A DNA stretch of 64,000 nt from Acidobacteriota bacterium (lineage in GTDB: Bacteria; Actinomycetota; AC-67), in contig JACQXY010000061.1 of the NCBI GenBank assembly GCA_016208485.1, positions 14,330 through 78,329 on the forward strand, in the 5' to 3' direction. The notes beneath the pieces are model-generated. The model saw nothing but the letters and a program-made list of their open reading frames with translations, was not told where the DNA came from and searched no databases. Positions within the stretch are counted from its first letter, which is position 1; each line of letters starts with the position of its first letter. Below are positions 38,955 through 64,000 of the stretch, piece after piece. A program made the position numbers and the translations under genes.

Positions 38955-39027
38955 GGGGACGTAGCTCAGTTGGTAGAGCGCTTGCTCGGCAGGCAAGAGG
39001 TCGCCGGTTCGAATCCGGTCGTCTCCA
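38955..39027 (+). tRNA. tRNA-Ala (anticodon GGC)
   Basis: Cloverleaf folds by hand: acceptor GGGGACG/CGTCTCC with the Ala identity pair G3:U70, D-arm GCTC-AGTTGGTA-GAGC, anticodon arm CTTGC-TCGGCAG-GCAAG (anticodon GGC; unusual C33), T-arm GCCGG-TTCGAAT-CCGGT; CCA not encoded. Confidence 0.8.
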
Positions 39028-39163
39028 CTTGACCCCCGCTGTCCGCCCCTCCTCCGTTCTCGTACGGAGTGGCTATCGCCCGCGAGCGCAAACTCGTACC
39101 AGATTGATCACGGGCCATTATTGATCGCCGGCCGGTCACGGCGTCGGCCGGCTTCCGCGCTGA

Positions 39164-52697: not shown

Positions 52698-53591
52698 TCA
52701 GTTGTCGGAGGGGCGCGGGGCGATCTTCAGCTTGGCGCTGACCTTCTCCATGTCGGTCTGGAACTTGAGCAGCACCCCGAGCGAGCGGCGCGCGGCGCCC
52801 TCGTCGAGCGTCGTCACCCCGAGGTGCAACAGCGTCCGGGCCCAGTCGAGCGACTCGGCGATCGAGGGCGCCTTCTTCAGCTCCATCTGCCGGATGCTCC
52901 GCACGACGCGCACGATCTGGTCGGCGAGGGTCTCGGGGATCTCCGGCACGCGCGAGAGAACGATCGCCTTCTCGCGCTCGATGTCGGGGTAGTCGAGGTA
53001 CAGGTAGAGACAGCGGCGCTTGAGCGCCTCCGACAGCTCGCGGGTGTTGTTCGAGGTGAGGACCACGAACGGGATCTGCCGGGCGACGACCGTCCCCATC
53101 TCCGGGATCGTCACCTGGAAGTCCGACAGCAGCTCGAGCAGCAGCCCCTCGAACTCGAAGTCGGTCTTGTCGATCTCGTCCACGAGCAGCGTCACCGGGT
53201 CGTCGCTCCGGATGGCCGACAGGAGCGGGCGCTCGAGCAGGAAGTCCTCGGTGAAGATGTTCGCCTCCACGTCCTCCCAACTCCATTCGCGATCGCGCTC
53301 GGCCTGGATCCTGAGAAGCTGCTTCTTGTAGTTCCACTCGTAGAGCGCTTTCGCCTCGTCCACGCCCTCGTAGCACTGGAGGCGGATGAGGCGCGACCCG
53401 GTCGAGGACGCGAGCGCTTTCGCCAGCTCGGTCTTGCCGGTGCCGGCCGGCCCCTCCACGAGGATCGGCTTGCCGAGGCGGCCGGCAAGGAAGACGACCG
53501 TCGCGATCGACTCGTCCGACAGGTACCCGGCGCCACCGAGGCGCTCGGAGACCTCCTCGACGCTTCCGAACGTCCGTCCGGCGCTAGCCAC
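52698..53591 (-). CDS. MoxR-family AAA+ ATPase (CoxD-like)
   Basis: Walker [17 protein letters not shown], Walker B LLVDEIDK, ~300 aa. Confidence 0.8.
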
Positions 53592-54866
53592 GGACCTGGC
53601 CCGTTCCGTGCACGATGTACTTGTAGGAGGTCAGCTCGGGCAGGGCCATCGGCCCGCGCGCGTGGAGCTTCTGGTTGGAGATCCCGATCTCGGCGCCGAA
53701 GCCGAACTCGCCGCCGTCGGCGAAACGCGTCGAGGCGTTCACCATCACGCAGGCGGAGTCGACTCCGGCGGCGAAGAGGCGCGCGGCCGCCTCGTCCTCG
53801 GTCACGATCGCCTCGGTGTGCCGGCTCCCGTAGCGGTTCACGTGCTCGACGGCCTCCTCGACGGATCCGACGACCTTCACCGCCATGATGAGATCGAGGT
53901 ACTCGGCATACCAGTCGTCCTCCGTCGCAGGCTTCATCGCGGCGGAGTAGCTGCGCGCCGCCTCGTCCCCGCGCAGCTCGACCCCGCGCCGGGTCAGCTC
54001 CTCGATCGCGCCCGGCAGGAACCGGTCGGCCAGCGCGCGGTGCACGAGCAGCGTCTCGGCCGCGTTGCAAACAGACGGCCGCTGCGTCTTCGAGTTCACG
54101 AGGATCGCCGTGGCCTTCCCAAGATCGGCCGCGGAGTCCACGTAGACGTGGCAGTTGCCGACCCCGGTCTCGATGACCGGGACGGTAGACTCCTCGACCA
54201 CCGTGCGGATCAAGTCGGCGCCGCCGCGCGGGATCAAGACGTCCACCAAGCCGTGCGCGCGCATCAGCTCCTTGACGCTCTCGCGGTCGGTCGATCGGAT
54301 GAGCTGGACCGAGTCGGGCGGCAGGCCGGCCAGCGTGCCGGCCTCGTCGAGGATGTCGGCGAGGACCGCGTTCGAGGAGATCGCGCTTCGCGAGCCGCGG
54401 AGCACGCAGGCGTTCCCGCTCTTCAGGCACAGCCCCGCGGCATCCACCGTCACGTTCGGGCGCGCCTCGTAGATGATGCCGACGACCCCGAGCGGAACGC
54501 GCACTTTCTCGATCGCAAGGCCGCTCGGCACGGTCCAGGAGGCGAGGGTCTCCCCCACGGGGTCCGGCAGGGTGACCACATGGCGCAGCCCGTTCGCCAT
54601 CTCGGCGATGCGGGCCGGAGTGAGCGTGAGGCGGTCGATGAGCGCGGCGGGAGTGCCCTCGGCCCTCGCGCGCTCGAGGTCCACGCCGTTCCCCTCGAGG
54701 ATCTCGTCCGCGCGCGCATCGAGCGCCGCGGCCATGGCCGCGAGCGCCGCGTCCTTCACCGCGGTCGCCGTCGTGGCGAGCGCGAACGCGGCTCGGCGCG
54801 CGCGCCCCGCGATCTCGAGAACCCCGCTGATGCCCGCCTCCCGGTGCCAACGGCGCGTGTCCCTCA
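53584..54866 (-). CDS. proA: glutamate-5-semialdehyde dehydrogenase (gamma-glutamyl phosphate reductase)
   Basis: Aligns with ProA throughout (…[31 protein letters not shown]…[10 protein letters not shown]…LHARGPMAL); start tentatively GTG at 54866. Confidence 0.8.
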
Positions 54867-54910
54867 CCGCGCCCGTGCAGAGACTATCGCAGATGCCGGA
54901 ACCTCGTGAT

Positions 54911-54926
54911 ACATGGTATACTATGT
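54911..54926. promoter_or_regulatory. vapBC promoter/operator: 16-bp near-palindrome ACATgGTATACtATGT containing -10 TATACT
   Basis: Seen in sequence; 14/16 symmetric around GTATAC; strongly AT-rich in a GC-rich context; vapB ATG lies 1-7 nt downstream (likely leaderless). Confidence 0.35.
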
Positions 54927-55165
54927 GCATGTTCACGGAGCGCACGCAGGTCTTGCTGAGCCCCGAGCAGCGGCGCGCCCTCGAGCGGCTGGCAAAGCGC
55001 CGCAAGGCCTCGGTCGGCGCCGTCGTCAGAGATGCCATCGAGGCCTACCTGACCCCGGGGGCCGGATCGAGATCGAAGGCGCTCGAGGCGCTTCTCGCGA
55101 TCGAGGCCCCCGTGGCGGACTGGGAGATCATGAAGGCCGAGATCGAGCAGGGAGCGCTCTCCTGA
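54923..55165 (+). CDS. vapB: ribbon-helix-helix antitoxin (VapB/CopG-like)
   Basis: M(CM)[43 protein letters not shown] fold signature; alternative ATG at 54929. Confidence 0.65.
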
Positions 55166-55596
55166 CGGTCTTCATCGACACCGCCCTGCCGATGTACGCG
55201 GCGGGCCGGGAGCACCCGTTGCGCGAGCCCTGCCGGGAGATCCTCGGACTCGCGGCGGCGGGGCGGCTTCCGGCCGTCACCTCCGCCGAGGTCGTCCGGG
55301 AGATCCTCCACCGGTTCGCGCACATCGGACGGCGCGACCTGGGGGCGGCGCTCGCCTCGGCGACCCTGGACCTCTTCGCTCCCGTCTTGCCGGTCACCCA
55401 CCGGATCGTGCAGCGCACGGCGGCCCTGGTCGAGCGATGCCCGCGCCTCTCCGCCCGCGATCTCGTGCACGTCGCCACGTGCCTGGAGGAAGGGATCGGG
55501 GCGATCGTGAGCCCCGACACGGGCTTCGACGAGGTCGGCGCGATCAGGCGGATCCCACCCGGGGACCGCAAGCTCCTGGCGCGCTACCTCCGGTAG
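55162..55596 (+). CDS. vapC: PIN-domain toxin VapC
   Basis: …[15 protein letters not shown]…VTSAEVVREILH…DLVHVATCLEEGIGAIVSPDTGFD with conserved PIN acidic residues; no canonical ATG/GTG/TTG upstream of the first conserved Asp so the start (CTG at 55162?) is uncertain. Confidence 0.6.
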   Translation: MTVFIDTALPMYAAGREHPLREPCREILGLAAAGRLPAVTSAEVVREILHRFAHIGRRDLGAALASATLDLFAPVLPVTHRIVQRTAALVERCPRLSARDLVHVATCLEEGIGAIVSPDTGFDEVGAIRRIPPGDRKLLARYLR

Positions 55597-55678
55597 AGTG
55601 TCCGAACCATCGCGTACATTGTTCTCCGGTCTATCTGCCGACTTGGGGTGCTTGATGGACGCTGCGGAGGGAAGCCGG

Positions 55679-58600
55679 ATGCGGTTCAGCCCCGGCCAGA
55701 TCCTCACCGGCCCTCTTTTCAACGAGCCGATGCGGGTCGAGAACGTGCAGGCCGGCGGCCAAGCAAGCTGGGTGGTGGGGCTCGTCGGCCTGCACTCCGA
55801 GCGCTTCCGCAAGGTGACCCTCAGCCCAGACGACGTCGAGCAACTGACGATCCTCGACGCGCGGCACTCATACGCGGGGGATGGACGGCTTCTGCGCCTC
55901 GGCCTCCAGGCATACGCCCTAGGAATCGCCTACGAATTCGACCCCTACTTTGGACTCTCTATCTCGCGCGTAGATCCGCTGCCGCACCAGCTCGAAGCCG
56001 TCTACGACTACCTGCTCAGGCTGGCGCGGGTGCGGTTCCTGCTCGCGGATGACGCCGGGGCCGGGAAGACCATCATGGCAGGGCTGCTGGTCCGAGAGCT
56101 CGAGCTCCGGGGTCTAGCCGAGCGCATCCTGATCGTCTGCCCGGCAAACCTTGCTTTCCAGTGGCAGCGCGAGCTGAAGGAGAAGTTCGATACCACGTTT
56201 CTCGTGATGAAGGGCCAAGACATCCGAGACCAGTTCGGCATGAACCAGTGGCTAGAACGGGACCGCGTCATCACGTCGCTCGACTTGGCGAAGCGCGAGG
56301 ACATCTTGCCGGGACTGCGCCAAGTCCACTGGGACCTTGTCATCGTGGACGAGGCCCATCGAATGTCGGCTGCCGACGAGTCGCACAAGAGCATGCGCTA
56401 CCGGCTCGGCGAGCTGCTGCGCGACGTCTCCGATCACATGCTCCTTCTCACGGCCACTCCGCACAAGGGCGACCCGCAGAACTTCAGTCTGTTTCTCCAG
56501 CTCCTCGACGCGGACGCCTACGCCGACGTGAAGTCGATCCGCGAGGCGATGGACCGCCGGCGGGCGCCCTTCTACTTGCGCCGCACCAAGGAAGCGATGG
56601 TCTACTTCCCCGAGCGGCGGCCGGACGGCTCCTGGGCTGCCGAGAAGATCTTCACCAAGCGAATCCCGCACACGGTGGACTTTCTGATCGACGGTGCGGA
56701 GTTCGATCTCTACCGCGAGGTGACGCGCTTTGTGAAGCGCGAGAGTGCCCGCGCGGCGGCCGAGGGCGAGGATCCCCGCGCTCGGGCGATCGGCTTCCTG
56801 ATGTCCCTCTACCAGCGCCGGCTCGCCTCGAGCACGTACGCGATGAAGCGATCACTCGAGAATCGCGCCCGACGCCTTGAAGACGGGCTCAAGCGCGCGC
56901 AGGACCTTGCCCGCCAAGCGCCGCCGGATATCCCCGATCCGGACGAGCTGGACGAGATGGAGGAAGGTGAGAGGGAGCAACTCGAGGCCATGATCGAGGC
57001 GATCACTCTCGCGGGAAACGCCGACCAAGTGCGCCAGGAGGTCCAGGAGCTGCGGCGGCTCGCCGCGCAGGCCCAAGCCGTGGTGGACGCGGGAGTAGAG
57101 GCCAAGCTTTCGGAGCTGAAGGATCTGCTCCAAGAAGAGGGCTTCTTCGATCATCCTGACCAGCGCTTGCTCCTGTTCACCGAGTTCAAGGACACCCTCG
57201 ACTACCTCGTGGAGCGCCTGGAGTCCTGGGGCTTCCGGGTCGGCTGCATCCACGGGGGCATGAAACCTGGCTCGCGCAACGAGCCCGGCACGCGCTTGTA
57301 CGCCGAGCAGCAGTTCCGTGAGGGCGAGATCCAGATCCTCGTCGCGACCGAGGCCGCGGGCGAGGGGATCAACCTGCAGGTCTGCAACATCCTCTTCAAC
57401 TACGACATCCCGTGGAACCCGAACCGTCTCGAGCAACGGATGGGCCGCATCCACCGTTACGGCCAGCGCAAGGATTGCTTGATCTTCAACTTCGTGGCGA
57501 CGAACACGATCGAAGGCCGCGTCCTCCAGCGGCTGCTCGAGAAACTCCAGGAGATCCGCGACGCGCTCGACGACGATGCGGTTTTCAACGTGGTCGGCGA
57601 GATTCTGCCGGCCGCCCACGTCGAACGCGTGCTGCGCGACTACTACGCCGGACGCCTCGGAGACGCCGACCTCGAGGAGCGCCTGCTCCGCGACGTGGAT
57701 GAGGGGCAATTCCGGGCCATCTGCCAGAACGCCTTAGAGGGACTGGCGAGCAAGAGGCTCAACCTGGAGATGCTGATCGAGCGTCGCGCGCGGGCACAAG
57801 AGCAACGCGTTGTTCCTGAGACCATCGCCCGATTCATGCGTGAAGCATCCGAGTTCGTGCCGCTCAGCCTGAGGATGGTTCCCAGCCTTGCCCACACCTT
57901 CGAGCCTGCCCGAACGCCCTCCGTTCTACGGCGCCACGAGAAGGACCCGGACTGGAAACTCCCGGCTCTCGCCGACCGCTATCCGCGCTGCTCCACCGAC
58001 CGGGAGACGGCAGAGACCCAGAAGCTGGAGTGGGTCACGCCCGGCCATCCACTATTCGAGGCGATCCGGCGCCACACGCACGCACGGGCGCTGGACGCCC
58101 TCGGCCAAGGTGCGACGTTCCATTCGCTCCAGCATGAACGTCCGGCGCGCATCGACTTCTATCGCGCCCGGGCAGTGGACGGACTCGGACAGGTCGTCCA
58201 TGAGCGGCTCTTCGCCGTGGAGATCGACGAGGACTCGGAGCCTCGGCTCCAAGAGCCCAGCTTGCTCGGGAACTTCGCGCCCGCAATCGCGCCGGCCGAG
58301 ATGCCTGCGGTGGCCGCCCTTCCAGAAGCGACGGCCTGGCTCCACGAACAGGCGCTGGCGCCGTTCCTCGACGAGACGCGGCAGGACCGCATGTCCGAGG
58401 TTGAGCGGATCGCCGCGCACGTCGAGCTGTCGCTGACGGAATTGCTCCAGCGTGCCGACGAGGAGATCGGCCGTTCGGCCTCAGACGTCGAGCAGAAGCT
58501 CGCCGGTGCCGAAGGGCGGCTCGCCATGGCGGAAACGCGTCACGCGGAACTGCTCACGCGACGCGATCGACGCCGGACCGATCTTGAGCACCAGCGTTCG

Positions 58601-59101
58601 CTGACCCTCCAAGCGGTTGAGCGGCTCGCGAGCGTCCTCATCTTGCCGCACCCCGAACGCGAGGCGCCCGATGTGCGACGCCTCAGGCCGAACTTCGAAA
58701 CCGAGGCCACCGCCATGCGCGTGGTGATGGAACATGAGCGGGCGCAGGGTCGTCAGGTCTACGACGTCTCCAAGAAGAACCTGGGCTACGACATCACGAG
58801 CCTCGACCTTGCCTCCGGTGAGTTGCGCCTCATCGAGGTCAAGGGCCTCGGCGCGGCGACCGGCACGATCCTGCTGACGCCCAACGAGCGGCGCGTCGCA
58901 GAGGATCGACCCGACTGCTTCTGGCTCTACGTCGTCACCGACTGCGACAATGCTCCGCGACTCCAGGAGCCGATCCGCGATCCGGCGCGGCTCGACTGGA
59001 ACGAAGTGCGAAAGGTGGCGCACTACTACCTCTCGGTGAACGCGATGACGAAACCCATGCAGGTGCGCGAAGAGCCGTTGCCGTACGGGAAGGCCCCCTG
59101 A
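55679..59101 (+). CDS. SNF2-family helicase (DEXDc + HELICc) with long coiled-coil linker and C-terminal DUF3883 restriction-endonuclease-like domain
   Basis: ATG with SD GGAGGGAAG (alternative upstream GTG 55598/ATG 55655); motifs LLADDAGAGKT (I), DLVIVDEAHR (II), LLLTATPHKG (III), …ILVATEAAGEGINLQ…QRMGRIHRYGQ (V/VI); C-terminus …RLIEVKGLGAATGTILLTPNERRVAEDRPDCFWLYVVTDC…. Confidence 0.75.
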   Translation: MRFSPGQILTGPLFNEPMRVENVQAGGQASWVVGLVGLHSERFRKVTLSPDDVEQLTILDARHSYAGDGRLLRLGLQAYALGIAYEFDPYFGLSISRVDPLPHQLEAVYDYLLRLARVRFLLADDAGAGKTIMAGLLVRELELRGLAERILIVCPANLAFQWQRELKEKFDTTFLVMKGQDIRDQFGMNQWLERDRVITSLDLAKREDILPGLRQVHWDLVIVDEAHRMSAADESHKSMRYRLGELLRDVSDHMLLLTATPHKGDPQNFSLFLQLLDADAYADVKSIREAMDRRRAPFYLRRTKEAMVYFPERRPDGSWAAEKIFTKRIPHTVDFLIDGAEFDLYREVTRFVKRESARAAAEGEDPRARAIGFLMSLYQRRLASSTYAMKRSLENRARRLEDGLKRAQDLARQAPPDIPDPDELDEMEEGEREQLEAMIEAITLAGNADQVRQEVQELRRLAAQAQAVVDAGVEAKLSELKDLLQEEGFFDHPDQRLLLFTEFKDTLDYLVERLESWGFRVGCIHGGMKPGSRNEPGTRLYAEQQFREGEIQILVATEAAGEGINLQVCNILFNYDIPWNPNRLEQRMGRIHRYGQRKDCLIFNFVATNTIEGRVLQRLLEKLQEIRDALDDDAVFNVVGEILPAAHVERVLRDYYAGRLGDADLEERLLRDVDEGQFRAICQNALEGLASKRLNLEMLIERRARAQEQRVVPETIARFMREASEFVPLSLRMVPSLAHTFEPARTPSVLRRHEKDPDWKLPALADRYPRCSTDRETAETQKLEWVTPGHPLFEAIRRHTHARALDALGQGATFHSLQHERPARIDFYRARAVDGLGQVVHERLFAVEIDEDSEPRLQEPSLLGNFAPAIAPAEMPAVAALPEATAWLHEQALAPFLDETRQDRMSEVERIAAHVELSLTELLQRADEEIGRSASDVEQKLAGAEGRLAMAETRHAELLTRRDRRRTDLEHQRSLTLQAVERLASVLILPHPEREAPDVRRLRPNFETEATAMRVVMEHERAQGRQVYDVSKKNLGYDITSLDLASGELRLIEVKGLGAATGTILLTPNERRVAEDRPDCFWLYVVTDCDNAPRLQEPIRDPARLDWNEVRKVAHYYLSVNAMTKPMQVREEPLPYGKAP

Positions 59102-59117
59102 TGGCGGAACGGATCCG

Positions 59118-60602
59118 ATGAGCGAGCGCATCTTCGTGAGCAGCGTGCAGAAGGAACTGGAGGCCGAGCGACGGGCCGTGCGGGCCTTCGTTCGCGGGGA
59201 TGCGCTGCTGCGGCGGTTCTTCGATGTCTTTCTCTTCGAAGACCTCGCGGCATCCGATCGGCGGGCGGACGATGTGTACCTCGACGAGGTGGGACGCTGC
59301 GCCGTCTACCTCGGACTTCTCGGCGACGAGTACGGCAGCGAGGACGCGGCGGGGGCATCGCCGACTGAGCGCGAGTTCGACCACGCCACAGCCCTGGGCA
59401 AGACGCGCCTCGTCTTCGTCAGGGGCGTTGACCACGACGGCCGGCATCCGAAGATGCGCGCTCTGGCCGCCAAGGCCGGAGCGCAGCTTATCCGCAGGCG
59501 TTTCAGCGGGATTTCAGACCTCACCGCGGCCCTCTACGCCAGCCTCGTCGAGCATCTGGAGCGGACGGGCAGGCTTAGCACGCGGCCCTTCGACGCTGCG
59601 GCCTGTCCGGACGCCACGTTGGAGGACGTCTCGCCCCAGAAGATGGAATGGTTCATCGGCATCGCCCGCCGCGAGCGGCAGTATCCTCTCCGCGAGGCTA
59701 CACCGCCGGTCGAGGCTCTGGCCCACCTGAACCTGCTCGACGCAGGCCAGCCGACCCGCGCAGCCGTCCTCCTATTCGGGCGGGAGCCGCAACGCTTTCT
59801 CCTCAGCTCCGAGATCAAGTGCCTGCACTTCCACGGCACCGAGGTGCGCAAGCCCATCCCGTCGTACCAGGTGTACAACGGAACCGTGTTCGAGTTGGTG
59901 GACCAGGCGGCGGACTTCGTCATGTCCAAGATCGCCCGGGCCGTCGGCACCCGCGCCCACGGCCCGGAGGCACCTGTCGAGTACGAGCTGCCCCGAGAGG
60001 CCGTGGTCGAGGCCATCGTGAACGCCGTCGCACACCGCGACTACACGAGCAACGCCAGTGCGCAGGTGATGCTCTTCGCGGACCGGCTGGAGGTCTGGAA
60101 CCCCGGAGAACTCCCCCCCACCCTGACGCTGCCGCAGTTGCGCATACCGCATCCCTCCATTCCCCACAACCCGCTCATCAGCGAGCCGCTCTTCCTTGCC
60201 CGGTACATCGAACGAGCCGGCACCGGCACACTGGACATGATCGCCCGGTGCCGGGAAATGGGCTTGCCCGAACCGGAGTTCCGGCAGGACGGTGGACAGT
60301 TCGTCATGACCTTGTGGCGCGACTGGCTCACGGAGGAAGTTCTGGCCTCCCTGGCACTGAATGAACGCCAGGAGAAGGCGGTCGGCTTCATCCGGCGAGA
60401 AGGCCGCCTGACCAACCTCCAGTACCAGGAGATCACGGGCGCGAGCCGGGCCACCGCGAAGCGGGACCTCGAGGAGCTTATGGGCAAGGGTGTGCTAGTC
60501 CGCATGGGCACCGGGCGCGCTGCCCATTATCTGGTTGCGAAGAAACGGCTCAAGAAAGGCTCAAATGGCTCACCGGAGGGTGCGGACGGAAATGGCTCAT
60601 AA
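59118..60602 (+). CDS. fusion protein DUF4062 + Schlafen/AlbA_2 divergent-ATPase + HATPase_c_4 + C-terminal wHTH (RecG-C-terminal-like 'transcriptional regulator' family)
   Basis: N-terminus MSERIFVSSVQKELEAERRAVRAFVRG matches DUF4062 start consensus; middle …AAVLLFGREPQRFLLSSEIKCLHFHG… (AlbA_2); …PLISEPLFLARYIERAGTGTLDMIARCREMGLPEPEF (HATPase_c_4); C-terminal HTH; TAA stop. Confidence 0.6.
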   Translation: MSERIFVSSVQKELEAERRAVRAFVRGDALLRRFFDVFLFEDLAASDRRADDVYLDEVGRCAVYLGLLGDEYGSEDAAGASPTEREFDHATALGKTRLVFVRGVDHDGRHPKMRALAAKAGAQLIRRRFSGISDLTAALYASLVEHLERTGRLSTRPFDAAACPDATLEDVSPQKMEWFIGIARRERQYPLREATPPVEALAHLNLLDAGQPTRAAVLLFGREPQRFLLSSEIKCLHFHGTEVRKPIPSYQVYNGTVFELVDQAADFVMSKIARAVGTRAHGPEAPVEYELPREAVVEAIVNAVAHRDYTSNASAQVMLFADRLEVWNPGELPPTLTLPQLRIPHPSIPHNPLISEPLFLARYIERAGTGTLDMIARCREMGLPEPEFRQDGGQFVMTLWRDWLTEEVLASLALNERQEKAVGFIRREGRLTNLQYQEITGASRATAKRDLEELMGKGVLVRMGTGRAAHYLVAKKRLKKGSNGSPEGADGNGS

Positions 60603-60662
60603 GTGGCTCAAACGGCTCACGCGGCCCGAACCCCGAAACCAACCCGACGAGGGCGACGCGAG

Positions 60663-60797
60663 ATGATCCCCAAGGAGTGCAAGCGCCTGGCTGAGGTGGA
60701 CTTCCCGATTGCCGAGGCGCCGCGGCATGCGGCGTGGGAGAAGTCGATCCGGCAGGGACATCCGAGCGCACCTGCCTCGAGAACTCAGACCCCATGA
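60663..60797 (+). pseudogene. duplicated 5' fragment (~35 codons) of the DUF1156 methyltransferase gene; short ORF whose stop overlaps the DUF3644 start
   Basis: 60663-60767 is ~89% identical at DNA level to 61867-61971 (protein MIPKECKRLAEVDFPIAEAPRHAAWEKSIRQGHPS vs MIPKECKRLAEVDFPIAEVSRHAAREKSIRHGHPS); homology ends ~nt 105 and the ORF terminates with TGA overlapping ATG 60794. Confidence 0.5.
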
Positions 60798-61870
60798 GAG
60801 GGCTGCCCTACGACGTCAAGGCGCTCGTCGAGAAGGCGAGGGAGACCGCCCTGCTCGCAGTGGAGACCTACAACCGCCCCACGGCGAGCTTCCGGTCAGG
60901 CGCGTACGTAGTCCTGATGATCATCGCTTGGACGTCGCTCTTTCACGCGATGTTCCTTCGCAAGGGAATCAAGCCGTACTGCCGAAAGCCCGGCTCAAGA
61001 CGGTACGAGCGGATCGATGGTGAGCCTCGGCGCTGGGAGCTCGGAGAGTGCCTGCGGCAACACTACAAGGCGAGTAACCCTGCCACCCGGCGGAATCTCG
61101 AGTTCTTCATTGGGCTCCGCAACAAGATCGAGCATCGTTCGCTTGCGCAGATCGACCCAGAAGTCTTCGGCGAATGCCAAGCGATGTTGCTGAACTTCGA
61201 GTCCCTGCTCGTTTCGGAGTTTGGTGATCGGTACGCGATTCGTGGCGGTCTCACGTTCGCCTTGCAGTTCTCACGGGTCGTTCCGACGAGTTCATCGGCG
61301 CCGGCCGCCAATACTGCTGGTAGAGCGTTCAAGGCGATCAAGCAATACGTGGACGCCTTCCGGTCAAGTCTGAGCGCGGACGTGCAGAACGACCTGGCCT
61401 ACAGCTTCAAGGTCTTCCTCGTTCCGAAGATCGGCAATCACGCGAGCAAGGACTCGGTTGCCGTGGAATGGATCAAATACCATCCCTCGAAGCCTGAGGA
61501 GATGAGGCACTACGAGAAGGTAGTGGCGATGATCAAGCCCAAGGAGGTGCAGATCGCGAATCTGGGCCGCCTAAAGCCGACGCAAGTCGCGCGGCAAGTT
61601 GCGGTCAAGCTCGGCAGGCGGTTCACGAATTACGACCACAAGCTTTGCTACGAGCATTTCACGATCCGGCCGCCAGGTGGGGCACCCGATCCGTCGGCAT
61701 GCAACCCTCAGTTCTGTGTCTACGACGATCTCCACAAGGACTACTGCTACACGCCGCAGTGGGTTGACTTCCTTGGGGAGAGACTGGCTGATCCTGCGCT
61801 CTACGCGAACATCATCACGAGAAGGAAGGCCACCGCGAAACCCATTGAAACCAGGAGCGCAACCGCATGA
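60794..61870 (+). CDS. DUF3644-family (HEPN-like, MAE_28990/MAE_18760-type) protein
   Basis: MRGLPYDVKALVEKARETALLAVETYNRPTASFRSGAYVVLMIIAWTSLFHAMFLRKGIKPYCR… matches my recollection of the DUF3644 N-terminal consensus; lower GC (~58%); ATGA overlaps at both ends. Confidence 0.55.
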   Translation: MRGLPYDVKALVEKARETALLAVETYNRPTASFRSGAYVVLMIIAWTSLFHAMFLRKGIKPYCRKPGSRRYERIDGEPRRWELGECLRQHYKASNPATRRNLEFFIGLRNKIEHRSLAQIDPEVFGECQAMLLNFESLLVSEFGDRYAIRGGLTFALQFSRVVPTSSSAPAANTAGRAFKAIKQYVDAFRSSLSADVQNDLAYSFKVFLVPKIGNHASKDSVAVEWIKYHPSKPEEMRHYEKVVAMIKPKEVQIANLGRLKPTQVARQVAVKLGRRFTNYDHKLCYEHFTIRPPGGAPDPSACNPQFCVYDDLHKDYCYTPQWVDFLGERLADPALYANIITRRKATAKPIETRSATA

Positions 61871-64000
61871 TCCCGAAGGAGTGCAAGCGCCTTGCCGAGG
61901 TGGACTTCCCGATCGCCGAGGTGTCGCGGCACGCGGCGCGGGAGAAGTCGATCCGGCACGGGCACCCGAGCACGCTGCACCTGTGGTGGGCCCGGCGGCC
62001 GCTGGCGTCGAGCCGCGCGGTGCTGCTGGGGCTACTCTGGCCGGATCCATGCGATCCGCTGTGCCCGCCAGAGTTCAAGGCGAAGGCTCGAGAGTTGCTG
62101 CCGCGGGTGCAGGGCGGGGGCGCGCCAGGCCCAACTAACAATGATCTACGGCAATCGCTGCTCAAGTTTATCGGTGCGTTTGCGAACTGGGACCTTGCCG
62201 CGAACGGCGTTTACCTGGAGGTCAGCCGCGCCCTGGTGAAGGCGGCGCACGGCGAGGAGCCACCGCTGGTCGTGGATCCGTTCGCGGGGGGCCGATCGAT
62301 CCCGTTGGAGGCTCTGCGGCTTGGCTGCGATGCCTTCGCGAGCGACTTGAACCCCGTCGCCTGCCTGATCCTCAAGGTGATGCTCGAGGACATCCCGCGC
62401 CACGGGCCGAAGCTCGCCGAGGAGCTGCGCCGCGTCGGGACGGAGATCAAACGGCAGGCGGAGAAGGAGTTGGCGGATCTCTACCCCAAGGATCCGGACG
62501 GCGCGACGCCGATCGCCTACCTCTGGGCGCGGACCGTGCGCTGCGAGTCGCCGAACTGCGGCGCGGAGATCCCGCTCGTGCGCTCGTTCTGGCTCTGCAA
62601 GAAGGCGAACCGCCGGCGGGCGCTCAGGCACCGCGTCGTGCGGCCCGCGGGCGAGCCGCCGCGCGTCGAGTTCGAGATAGTCGAGCCGAAGGCTGAGGAG
62701 GAGGTGCCCGGCGGGACGGTGACGCGCGCGAAGGCCACGTGCGTCGCGTGCGGCGCGGTGCTCCCGCCCGAGCGCGTGCGGCCGCAGCTCGCGGCACAGC
62801 GCGGCGGGGCCGACGTCGTCTTCGGCGCCGAGGGCCTACGCACGGCCGGGGCGAGGATGCTGGCCGTTGTGACGCTCCGGCCCGACGAGCAGGGACGGCA
62901 CTATCGGCTGTCAACCGAGCGCGACTACGAGGGCACCCGCAACGCGCAGGAGCGGCTCGCGGCGATCCTCGGCGCGTGGGAGCGTGACGGAAAGATGGGC
63001 CTCCGCCCGGTGCCGGATGAGCCGCTGCCGCCGATCGGCACGCTCGGCTTTCGCGTGCAGCGGTACGGCATGCTCCAGTGGGGCGACCTCTTCACGGCGC
63101 GGCAGAAGACTGCGCTGGTCACGTTGTCGGTGCGGATGGCCCGAGAGAACGGAGACGTCATTGAGGCAATGGCGTCTTCTCTTTCGAGACTTGCGGACAA
63201 GAACGCATCACTCGCAGTCTGGAATCAGATCGGCGAGAAGATTGAGCACGTCTTCGGGCGTCAGGCACTCCCAATCGTCTGGGACTTCGCAGAGGTGCCC
63301 ATATTTTCGAACTCTACCGGTAATTTCGGCAGCGGTGTCGATCTCGTCCGAAAAGTGTTAGAGGCTTGGCCTGGCTCACTTGCAGGGCAAGTTCAACTCG
63401 CTGACGCTACCGAGCACCCACTCCCCGACCAGACCGCAACCGTCTGGTTCACCGACCCGCCCTATTACGATGCGGTCCCGTACGCCGACCTCTCGGACTT
63501 CTTCTTCGTCTGGCTGAAGCGCGCGCTACCGGGACGAGCAGTCTTGCGCGATCCGTTCGATCCGGCCAACCCGCTTTCCCCCAAACGGCGCGAAGCCGTG
63601 CAGGACGAGACGAAACGAGACAACGGTCGGTCGAAGGACCGAGCGTGGTTCGAGGAGACGATGGCCCGTGCCTTCGCCGAAGGCCGACGGGTACTGCGAG
63701 AGGACGGCGTGGGCTCCGTGGTTTTTGCCCACAAGACGACGGAAGGCTGGGAAGCGCTCCTCTCCGGGATGATTCGGGGCGGCTGGACGATCACCGGCTC
63801 GTGGCCCATCGCCACGGAGCGCCCCGGGCGACTGCGCGCACAGGAGTCTGCCGCCCTCGCCACCAGCGTCCACCTCATCTGCCGCCCCCGCCCTGTGGAT
63901 GCAGGCGTCGGTGACTGGGCCGACGTTCTGCGCGAGCTGCCGAACCGCGTCGGCGACTGGATGGAGCGCCTGCAGGGCGAAGGTATTCGCGGCGCCGACC
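61867..64000 (+). CDS. DUF1156-domain N6-adenine DNA methyltransferase with Zn-ribbon (COG1743 family), 3' end beyond window
   Basis: Open frame from ATG 61867 to the window end; N-terminal DUF1156 (…HGHPSTLHLWWARRP…VDPFAGGRSIPLEALRLGCDAFASDLNP = SAM-binding motif I), CxxC…CxxC Zn-ribbon (CESPNCG…CVACG), catalytic motif IV DPPY (VWFTDPPYYD). Confidence 0.75.
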   Translation, partial: MIPKECKRLAEVDFPIAEVSRHAAREKSIRHGHPSTLHLWWARRPLASSRAVLLGLLWPDPCDPLCPPEFKAKARELLPRVQGGGAPGPTNNDLRQSLLKFIGAFANWDLAANGVYLEVSRALVKAAHGEEPPLVVDPFAGGRSIPLEALRLGCDAFASDLNPVACLILKVMLEDIPRHGPKLAEELRRVGTEIKRQAEKELADLYPKDPDGATPIAYLWARTVRCESPNCGAEIPLVRSFWLCKKANRRRALRHRVVRPAGEPPRVEFEIVEPKAEEEVPGGTVTRAKATCVACGAVLPPERVRPQLAAQRGGADVVFGAEGLRTAGARMLAVVTLRPDEQGRHYRLSTERDYEGTRNAQERLAAILGAWERDGKMGLRPVPDEPLPPIGTLGFRVQRYGMLQWGDLFTARQKTALVTLSVRMARENGDVIEAMASSLSRLADKNASLAVWNQIGEKIEHVFGRQALPIVWDFAEVPIFSNSTGNFGSGVDLVRKVLEAWPGSLAGQVQLADATEHPLPDQTATVWFTDPPYYDAVPYADLSDFFFVWLKRALPGRAVLRDPFDPANPLSPKRREAVQDETKRDNGRSKDRAWFEETMARAFAEGRRVLREDGVGSVVFAHKTTEGWEALLSGMIRGGWTITGSWPIATERPGRLRAQESAALATSVHLICRPRPVDAGVGDWADVLRELPNRVGDWMERLQGEGIRGAD

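Follow-up and report, generated by a model that had tools for sequence, protein, structure and literature searches.

A short reading frame in an Hma anti-phage operon is very probably a displaced methylase 5' end left by recombination

The DNA analysed here is a stretch of 64,000 nucleotides (hereafter the window) from an Acidobacteriota bacterium (assembly GCA_016208485.1, contig JACQXY010000061.1, positions 14,330 to 78,329 of the forward strand). By PADLOC and Pfam models it carries an Hma anti-phage operon in the order hmaA, a cassette gene named X, a short open reading frame (ORF) that we call the stub, a DUF3644 gene, and the methylase gene hmaB. Comparison with related loci gives us high confidence that the short ORF at 60663-60797 is a recombination scar, namely the remnant of the 5' end of an hmaB formerly located directly after X. 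The scar is old and ordinary in kind, and it is part of a recurrent signature that explains how Hma operons accumulate and reshuffle embedded genes.

The stub begins with a near copy of the start of hmaB. Alignment, a repeat finder, and a codon-by-codon comparison agree that 60663-60767 and 61867-61971 are collinear direct repeats with 94 of 105 positions identical (89.5%); seven of the 11 differences are synonymous third-position changes and four alter an amino acid, so that 31 of 35 residues are identical. In 15-nucleotide (nt) bins, the identity drops to background right upstream of both ATGs and again past nt 105. When the true hmaB 5' end was searched against the window by blastn, only one extra copy was found (E = 6.8e-36), the next best match having E = 0.03. 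The TGA of the stub (60795-60797) overlaps the DUF3644 ATG (60794-60796) as ATGA, and the DUF3644 stop (61868-61870) overlaps the hmaB ATG (61867-61869) in the same manner. An initial annotation, made from the sequence alone, had described a duplication of about 105 nt and 35 residues at about 89% identity with about 11 differences, an abrupt end of homology, and ATGA overlaps at both junctions, all of which agree with these results; its DUF3644 and DUF1156 labels are likewise confirmed by Pfam (E = 1.4e-51 and 1.4e-21, respectively). The DUF3644 gene is not nested, as had been stated, and sits between the stub and the true hmaB. The parts of the locus are as follows.

55598-59101, + strand: hmaA, SNF2-type helicase with a C-terminal NOV_C nuclease-like (PD-(D/E)XK-like) domain; left conserved flank of the cassette slot
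59118-60602, + strand: cassette gene X, DUF4062 / HATPase_c_4 / C-terminal helix-turn-helix (HTH) protein of 494 amino acids (Pfam)
60603-60662, + strand: spacer of 60 nt between X and an hmaB-type start codon, apparently inherited with X
60663-60797, + strand: stub ORF, 44 codons plus stop; probable displaced hmaB 5' end plus a nine-codon out-of-context tail, with the TGA overlapping the DUF3644 ATG
60663-60767, + strand: hmaB-derived part of the stub (upstream repeat copy), corresponding to hmaB nt 1-105
60768-60783, + strand: putative recombination junction, 16 nt with a clear match to neither parent; may be decayed hmaB nt 106-125
60784-60793, + strand: native leader of the DUF3644 gene, consensus GGCTGAGACNCC in relatives and common to the stub-less locus L086
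60794-61870, + strand: DUF3644 gene, HEPN-type protein of 358 amino acids, PADLOC candidate PDC-S19
61867-61971, + strand: hmaB 5' end (downstream repeat copy), 100 of 105 positions identical to the hmaB 5' end of locus L120
61867-64000, + strand: hmaB, DUF1156 DNA methyltransferase running past the end of the window (711 codons visible); right conserved flank of the slot

Two kinds of related loci, which carry L numbers throughout, point to the parts from which this arrangement was built. L120, found via the closest X homologue, contains the 3' end of hmaA, X (85% amino acid identity), a like spacer of 60 nt and one intact hmaB, with no DUF3644 gene. Against the window it yields a single blastn high-scoring segment pair (window 58622-60767 to L120 1-2146, 84.3%) that ends exactly at hmaB nt 105, and its hmaB 5' end aligns to the true copy of the window too. 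L086 and L093 are arranged HmaA-DUF3644-HmaB, their DUF3644 proteins are 86 to 88% identical to that of the window, and neither has a stub; the homology of L086 to the window begins at 60784, 10 nt before the DUF3644 ATG. The empty site in L120 and the stub-less loci L086 and L093 therefore indicate that the stub is the displaced 5' end of the hmaB once following X. By its alignments, the window appears to be composed of an "HmaA-X-spacer-hmaB nt 1-105" module joined to a "leader-DUF3644-hmaB" module, the new junction lying within 60768-60783. At the 11 sites where the stub and the true copy differ, L120 agrees with the true copy eight times, with the stub twice and with neither once; therefore, most of the 10% divergence is decay of the stub. 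The initial annotation had proposed a cassette insertion or recombination scar with the methylase N terminus as the recombination target, and had suggested that relatives might show a single methylase start with or without DUF3644. L120, with one hmaB start and no DUF3644, and L086 and L093, with DUF3644 and no stub, support that proposal. Its further idea of a recombination between two DUF1156 loci, or an old insertion, holds insofar as two modules seem to have been joined; the divergence it invoked is mostly stub decay rather than a difference between two old alleles.

The junction of the window, here called type A (GHPS[T/A]PA..ETP*, with ATGA onto DUF3644), is found in 14 analysed loci, the window included, from Acidobacteria, Aminicenantes, Eisenbacteria, and Deltaproteobacteria metagenome-assembled genomes (MAGs) and from many metagenomes. 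Its structure is that of a junction with a single origin, which apparently spread later with the operon across several phyla. Measured against the consensus of true hmaB 5' ends, 11 stubs have 60 synonymous and 37 non-synonymous changes, whereas 13 true 5' ends have 63 and 7, giving rough dN/dS-like ratios of about 0.19 and 0.035. The frame to the overlapping TGA is open in 12 of the 14 stubs and frameshifted in L087 and L088; in-frame deletions are present in the stubs of L003 (7 codons), L081, and L082, and the ATG of the L088 stub has become TTG. Four of six stub indels are in frame, which is not significant (p = 0.10). Relaxed constraint, together with the absence of the stub from close relatives, therefore argues that the peptide is dispensable and the stub a scar rather than a conserved gene. 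A short ORF conserved in relatives had been named in the initial annotation as the observation that would speak against a duplication; the same ORF does formally recur in the 13 other type-A loci, but as a scar under relaxed constraint that close relatives lack.

For the same reasons, it is very unlikely that the short ORF is a genuine small gene, coding for a leader, regulatory, or adaptor peptide that derives from the HmaB N terminus and is needed for DUF3644 or Hma. Such a gene would fit the start codon and ATGA junction, the frame kept open in most type-A loci, a non-synonymous rate under the neutral expectation, and the calling of the ORF as a gene in L113. However, its amino acids are substituted about five times as fast as those of the true N terminus, the lesions in L003, L087, and L088 would damage it, and L086 and L093 do without it. 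In addition, Pfam gave no match for the stub peptide, and the other hmaB stubs described below are mostly 11 to 49 codons long and fused to unrelated sequence. An assembly or binning artefact, in which two strain alleles of hmaB were collapsed or chimerically joined, has a practically negligible probability. The window does come from a metagenome-assembled genome, and its two copies differ at 11 sites as strain alleles might; yet L113, a separately assembled contig from a public run (Logan SRR12113402), has the identical arrangement with its 44-codon ORF, 13 further contigs, which stem from unrelated studies and phyla, share the junction, and neither side shows a broken reading frame or ATGA overlap.

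Partial copies of the genes flanking the slot are widespread in related Hma loci. In addition to type A, which breaks at codon 36, there are 10 further independent hmaB 5' junctions, at codons 11, 11, 19, about 20, 20, 21, 25, 27, about 49, and about 214. Ten of the 11 break points thus fall within the first 50 of about 1,000 codons, a clustering for which a binomial test, applied conservatively to 9 of 10, gives a p of about 2e-11 if break points were uniformly distributed; we infer that longer repeats are lost fast by recombination or are harmful. At least six hmaA 3' stubs of 35 to 85 codons were found as well. Partial hmaA 3' copies of 35 to 76 codons lie upstream of cassettes at L005 5774-5863, L052 3402-3650 and 4827-5048, L095 1189-1338, and L114 5850-5981, the two in L052 sharing a common left junction (MD[S/F]DSLRQTIL…), and chimeras of an hmaB 5' end with an hmaA 3' end occur twice (L084 246-449, L114 7546-7722). 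Stubs are present in 11 of 13 multi-cassette loci versus 1 of 6 single-cassette loci (Fisher p = 0.0095, indicative only as the loci are related). The duplication that the initial annotation thought worth seeking in other DUF1156 loci is found in the 14 type-A loci and in 10 other junction types, and in neither of two plasmid loci considered below.

Several of these loci have individual features. In L080 (7074-12322), and likewise in L092, an hmaB stub of about 20 codons is fused in frame to a truncated IS21 IstA (Mu-transpos_C_2), followed by IstB and a complete IetA-IetS pair whose stop overlaps the true hmaB ATG; this event may have involved an insertion sequence. The only stub above 50 codons is a 225-codon ORF in the middle of the L084 array (2046-2723), with hmaB homology over about 214 codons that includes DUF1156 and the start of the methyltransferase fold. 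In L093 (1126-1679) the hmaB match skips from amino acid 94 to 429, suggesting an internal methylase deletion in that contig, and in L004 (1531-3480) an insertion in hmaA is suggested by about 1.9 kb without any match that divides the HmaA match into two parts (amino acids 252-761 and 758-1165). The HmaC N terminus matches twice in different frames in L015 (12330-12546; amino acids 1-22 and 12-71); this was rejected as a stub and is probably a frameshift or small duplication.

The stubs appear to serve as sites for later rearrangement. At least 10 unrelated cassettes stand directly upstream of the type-A stub: DUF4062/HATPase_c_4, AlbA_2/HATPase_c_4, AIPR/AbiU, AAA_13 (PDC-S06), a UvrD/GajB-like helicase, a HerA-like ATPase, OLD-TOPRIM, DUF4145, PIN, and one unknown. 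In most such loci the cassette stop overlaps the stub ATG, as cassette genes do at true hmaB starts. The median pairwise identity is 0.52 over the 150 nt upstream of the stub, 0.83 in the stub, and 0.93 in DUF3644, and the stub retains about 85 to 95% nucleotide similarity to true hmaB 5' ends. A 2244-nt module consisting of a 21-codon stub and a HerA-like gene (93.5% identical) is placed downstream of DUF3644 in L084 and upstream of it in L080, and L083 corresponds to L080 minus this module, the two alignments overlapping only in the first 61 to 63 nt or so of the stub. The end points of these rearrangements are homologous sites inside hmaB-derived sequence, and homologous recombination through the stubs is therefore the likely process. 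The comparative structure of the loci thus shows the stub and the hmaA 3' end in the apparent role of homology arms for cassette exchange, deletion, and permutation.

These observations can be ordered into a mechanism. A DUF3644 gene already lying directly ahead of another intact hmaB would arrive as a module, and an illegitimate join, possibly mediated by microhomology, would fuse hmaB at about nt 105-125 to a point some 10 to 20 nt upstream of the DUF3644 gene. The methylase would have stayed functional because the incoming module supplied a complete hmaB. The displaced hmaB 5' end would be left as the stub and decay from then on, a step that the comparisons above bear out. The stub and the hmaA 3' end would then allow upstream cassettes to be swapped, lost, or permuted without disturbing the DUF3644-hmaB pair. 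For the first join, the pathway could be homology-facilitated illegitimate recombination, or the slot could have been duplicated in tandem and its cassette then replaced. A lead is provided by an 8-nt microhomology, TGGTGGGC, present at hmaB nt 118-125 and at -17 to -10 of the L086 leader, where a join would be in frame.

Translation of the stub may also have been put to use. The anti-Shine-Dalgarno match of the DUF3644 start is about -3.3 kcal/mol in stub-bearing loci versus -5 to -10 in most stub-less loci, and the stub retains the start context of hmaB, with its own stop lying in the ATGA overlap. Stub translation therefore probably, although this is the weaker inference, delivers ribosomes to the DUF3644 start with its weak Shine-Dalgarno sequence. 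The leader peptide considered in the initial annotation would accordingly survive only as translational coupling, to which the mostly open frames and the weak Shine-Dalgarno match lend modest weight, and not as a needed peptide.

Other origins of the repeat fare differently. Tandem duplication of the slot, running from upstream of DUF3644 to about hmaB nt 110, with the upstream DUF3644 copy then replaced by recombination between the hmaA 3' end and the stub, could leave a like scar that does not go back to a one-step crossover of two Hma loci. We regard this route as possible, but only tentatively so. The chimeras in L084 and L114 are the expected remains of a slot duplication, the two L052 stubs share their left junction, and stub-less HmaA-DUF3644-HmaB loci such as L086 and L093 exist as a starting point. 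On the other hand, no locus was found with two copies of one cassette separated by a stub, and the window stub is contiguous with X and the spacer just as in L120, so that a direct join of X-hmaB to DUF3644-hmaB explains it equally well. Far less room is left for an attachment-site (att) or target-site duplication made by a recombinase or transposase acting at a defined hmaB 5' site, in the style of integrons or of SCC and tRNA islands, which is very unlikely indeed. Arrays punctuated by copies of a target gene end, with newer modules beside hmaB and older ones further upstream (L080), resemble the products of such an enzyme, and one stub (L080 7074) adjoins the IS21 remnant of truncated IstA and IstB. 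Nevertheless, no integrase or transposase was seen in the 1.2-kb insert or in the 55-64 kb stretch, the only part of the window screened for integrases, and no recombinase occurs among the hmaA-hmaB genes of the window, L001 to L003, L080, L084, L114, and L117. A repeat of 105 nt at 89.5% is too long and too diverged for a short exact duplication, the insert lacks flanking terminal inverted repeats and attC-like palindromes, and the break positions vary from codon 11 to about 214 with no fixed core. A transposon target-site duplication was therefore rejected on account of the long diverged repeat, the lack of inverted repeats, and the lack of a transposase in that stretch, in line with the initial view that a recent target-site duplication was not involved; an att-site duplication or integron array was rejected on account of the variable break points and the lack of a recombinase among the genes checked.

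A number of points weigh against the displacement of an hmaB 5' end and the later use of stubs as set out above. All relatives are metagenome or MAG contigs, and the type-A loci are phylogenetically related, so that counts across them are not independent. The dN/dS-like ratio of the stubs is rough and at 0.19 still below neutrality, and part of the synonymous divergence is older than the stub. Under the microhomology model the two ATGs should be 134 nt apart, and the observed distance is 131 nt; the junction is 3 nt shorter and has diverged. When each stub is compared with the true copy of its own locus, the evidence for gene conversion is mixed: no foreign 5' end is closer in the window, L002, L079, and L087 (L079 and L087 being ties), and a foreign true 5' end is closer than the own copy in the other four loci. 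No crossover points could be resolved within stubs, because "orthologous" stubs are 84 to 87% identical over the first 63 nt and equally similar to one another. Two multi-cassette loci, L004 and L006, have no detectable stubs, and a search of the hmaB-hmaC slot for hmaB 3' or hmaC 5' stubs found none. No stubs were present in the distant DUF1156 plasmid loci inspected (Thermus L118, Planktothrix L119), which came from a tblastn search of the HmaB N terminus against 72,556 plasmids that returned 60 records, 3 of them with two matching places and 2 of those inspected; the E-value limit of this search would miss short stubs at 60 to 70% identity, and the result says little on generality.

A broader reading can be put forward only with reserve and is more doubtful than not: that hmaB and hmaA stubs are universal linkers of a recombinase-free, integron-like cassette system, whose modules are looped out, reinserted, reordered, and transferred among the Hma operons of unrelated bacteria by homologous recombination. 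If it were true, every embedded module would be flanked by stubs, stub length would stay under about 150 nt as longer repeats collapse, and the conserved hmaB start and ATGA junctions could be partly kept for their role as linkers. It would then offer a general route by which genes become embedded in Hma operons and possibly also in those of BREX, DISARM, and type I restriction-modification systems.

Embedding itself is already known. Of 1,485 Hma systems, 62.7% carry embedded genes, nearly always co-oriented (Payne et al. 2024, bioRxiv 10.1101/2024.01.29.577857; Liu et al. 2024, PMC11232893), and a DUF3644 HEPN protein embedded in Hma, HEC-08, protects against phage (Payne et al. 2024). Both studies leave the origin and significance of embedding open. 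The system and slot are the same here, with the difference that the window protein fits PDC-S19 and not HEC-08. The stub signature and its implied mechanism were not found in searchable papers: the Payne preprint text contains none of "recombination", "fragment", and "truncat" and uses "duplicat" once, for removing duplicate sequences, and in the text of Liu et al. "duplicat" is absent and "recombination" appears once, in passing.

The closest mechanistic analogue is found in the displacement arrays of Rhs, contact-dependent inhibition (CDI), and type VI secretion system (T6SS) genes (Jackson 2009, Poole 2011, and Koskiniemi 2014, as cited in PMC5361080). There, modules anchor by homology in the conserved part of a gene and join illegitimately at the other end, older modules remain as orphans with fragments of the conserved gene, later transfer and rearrangement proceed by homologous recombination, and an integrase-free parallel to integrons has been noted (Kirchberger et al. 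2017, PMC5361080). Orphan fragments at module boundaries, as well as empty and occupied relatives, are both found in Hma loci, and modules have later been rearranged via retained fragments (L080, L083, L084, and the many cassettes at the stub ATG). However, those arrays displace the 3' variable tip of a toxin gene downstream, whereas Hma displaces the 5' end of the methylase or the 3' end of the helicase, and the Hma cargo consists of whole unrelated defence genes in a slot that two conserved genes of a single operon enclose. Homology-facilitated illegitimate recombination, which combines one homologous anchor with one microhomology join (de Vries & Wackernagel 2002; Prudhomme et al. 2002; Meier & Wackernagel 2003, as cited in PMC5361080 and PMC3240628), has, according to what these two citing papers report of it, been demonstrated experimentally only for a handful of competent species and for conjugation in E. 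coli. It would account for a new junction in hmaB with an intact hmaB downstream, although here the 8-nt microhomology points to it from sequence alone. The ATGA overlaps are like those of other translationally coupled genes, with the difference that the upstream ORF here is probably a pseudogene fragment, coupling being suggested by frame retention and the weak Shine-Dalgarno match.

Islands at tRNA genes and SCC elements at rlmH are also units bounded by partial target-gene ends, in which the incoming unit restores the gene; they rely on a dedicated recombinase and on an att core that is fixed and measures about 15 to 50 bp. Hma loci differ from them in having no recombinase that could be found, variable break points, and repeats of 33 to 147 nt, with one of about 640 nt.

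Embedding in Hma, BREX, DISARM, and type I restriction-modification operons has recently served as a guide to new anti-phage systems, and for one Hma subfamily the present comparison suggests how it may come about: a new module brings an intact end of the flanking gene, the old end is left as a stub, and stubs then act as homology arms. The stub signature would delimit cassette boundaries and help to find further embedded candidates, and the model explains co-oriented, tightly coupled arrays and predicts that defence modules are gained, lost, and reordered in a recA-dependent manner. For annotation, short "hypothetical proteins" starting MIPK(D/E)CKRLAEVDFPIAE upstream of embedded genes are likely hmaB fragments and should be flagged.

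The remaining parts of the operon are consistent with the assignment to Hma. HmaA has the Pfam domains SNF2-rel_dom, Helicase_C, and NOV_C, matches PADLOC HmaA over residues 69-1114 (E = 8.5e-174), and shares 80 to 87% amino acid identity with HmaA of L001 to L003 and L005. HmaB matches its PADLOC model (E = 8.8e-107) and is encoded downstream of hmaA on the same strand; the PADLOC HmaB match in the stub region covers residues 24-56 of a 64-amino-acid ORF opening at GTG 60603. The window ends inside hmaB, which places hmaC beyond it, and HmaC (DUF499 ATPase) is present in homologous loci: L001 10111-12891 (PADLOC HmaC 2.9e-92), and also L002 to L006, L085, L086, and L098. The DUF3644 protein matches PADLOC model PDLC04950 for PDC-S19 over residues 1-347 of 358 (E = 2.2e-131) and has the HEPN Rx4-6H motif as RNKIEH (Rx4H, R109-H114) at 61118-61135, of which R109, N110, E113, and H114 are invariant in 29 homologues. 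No HEC-08 model match was obtained in PADLOC at E <= 0.01, and HEC-08 membership is not claimed; the protein is a candidate defence gene product, anti-phage activity having been shown only for the related HEC-08. A PDB sequence search with the DUF3644 profile and NCBIfam gave no useful matches, an Rfam scan of 58500-62500 gave no RNA family at E <= 0.1, and a promoter and terminator scan of 55000-62500 gave none on the + strand, which fits a single operon and is uninformative for this organism.

The X protein is a 100% match to an NCBI protein of an Acidobacteria MAG (P0121), and homologues of 77 to 85% identity are embedded in the Hma loci L114, L117, and L120 and in the BREX locus L122/L123. 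A spacer of equal length is present between X and the intact hmaB of L120 and between X and an 11-codon hmaB stub in L114, with 45 and 42 of 60 positions identical, respectively. In L122/L123 (6001-7488) the 77% homologue lies in a BREX-like locus between a 1148-amino-acid gene that follows brxB and a PglX-like methylase; Hma stubs are absent there, and the homology with the window stops within about 15 to 20 nt of the X gene. The cassette therefore appears to move between different host systems. An 80% X homologue in L121 (6001-7621) is located beside Ku and LigD genes outside any Hma operon, with a 30-codon remnant of the hmaB interior (amino acids 131-160) just downstream, possibly from a decayed Hma locus.

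Across the 3' end of X and the spacer before the stub, GGCTCA occurs six times in 73 nt (60547-60619, spacings 11, 9, 27, 11, and 9), compared with 21 copies on the entire + strand of the window, and L114 and L120 have the cluster conserved; its repeats could form an array of sites bound by the HTH domain of X or by another regulator. Directly upstream of hmaA is a VapBC-like pair at 54908-55596, comprising a ribbon-helix-helix (CopG-type) antitoxin-like ORF and a PIN-domain ORF, the latter ending at 55596 and hmaA starting at 55598. An aldehyde-dehydrogenase-family gene, probably proA, is located at 53584-55038 on the minus strand, and a single tRNA-Ala(GGC) gene is located at 38955-39028, about 16.6 kb upstream of hmaA.

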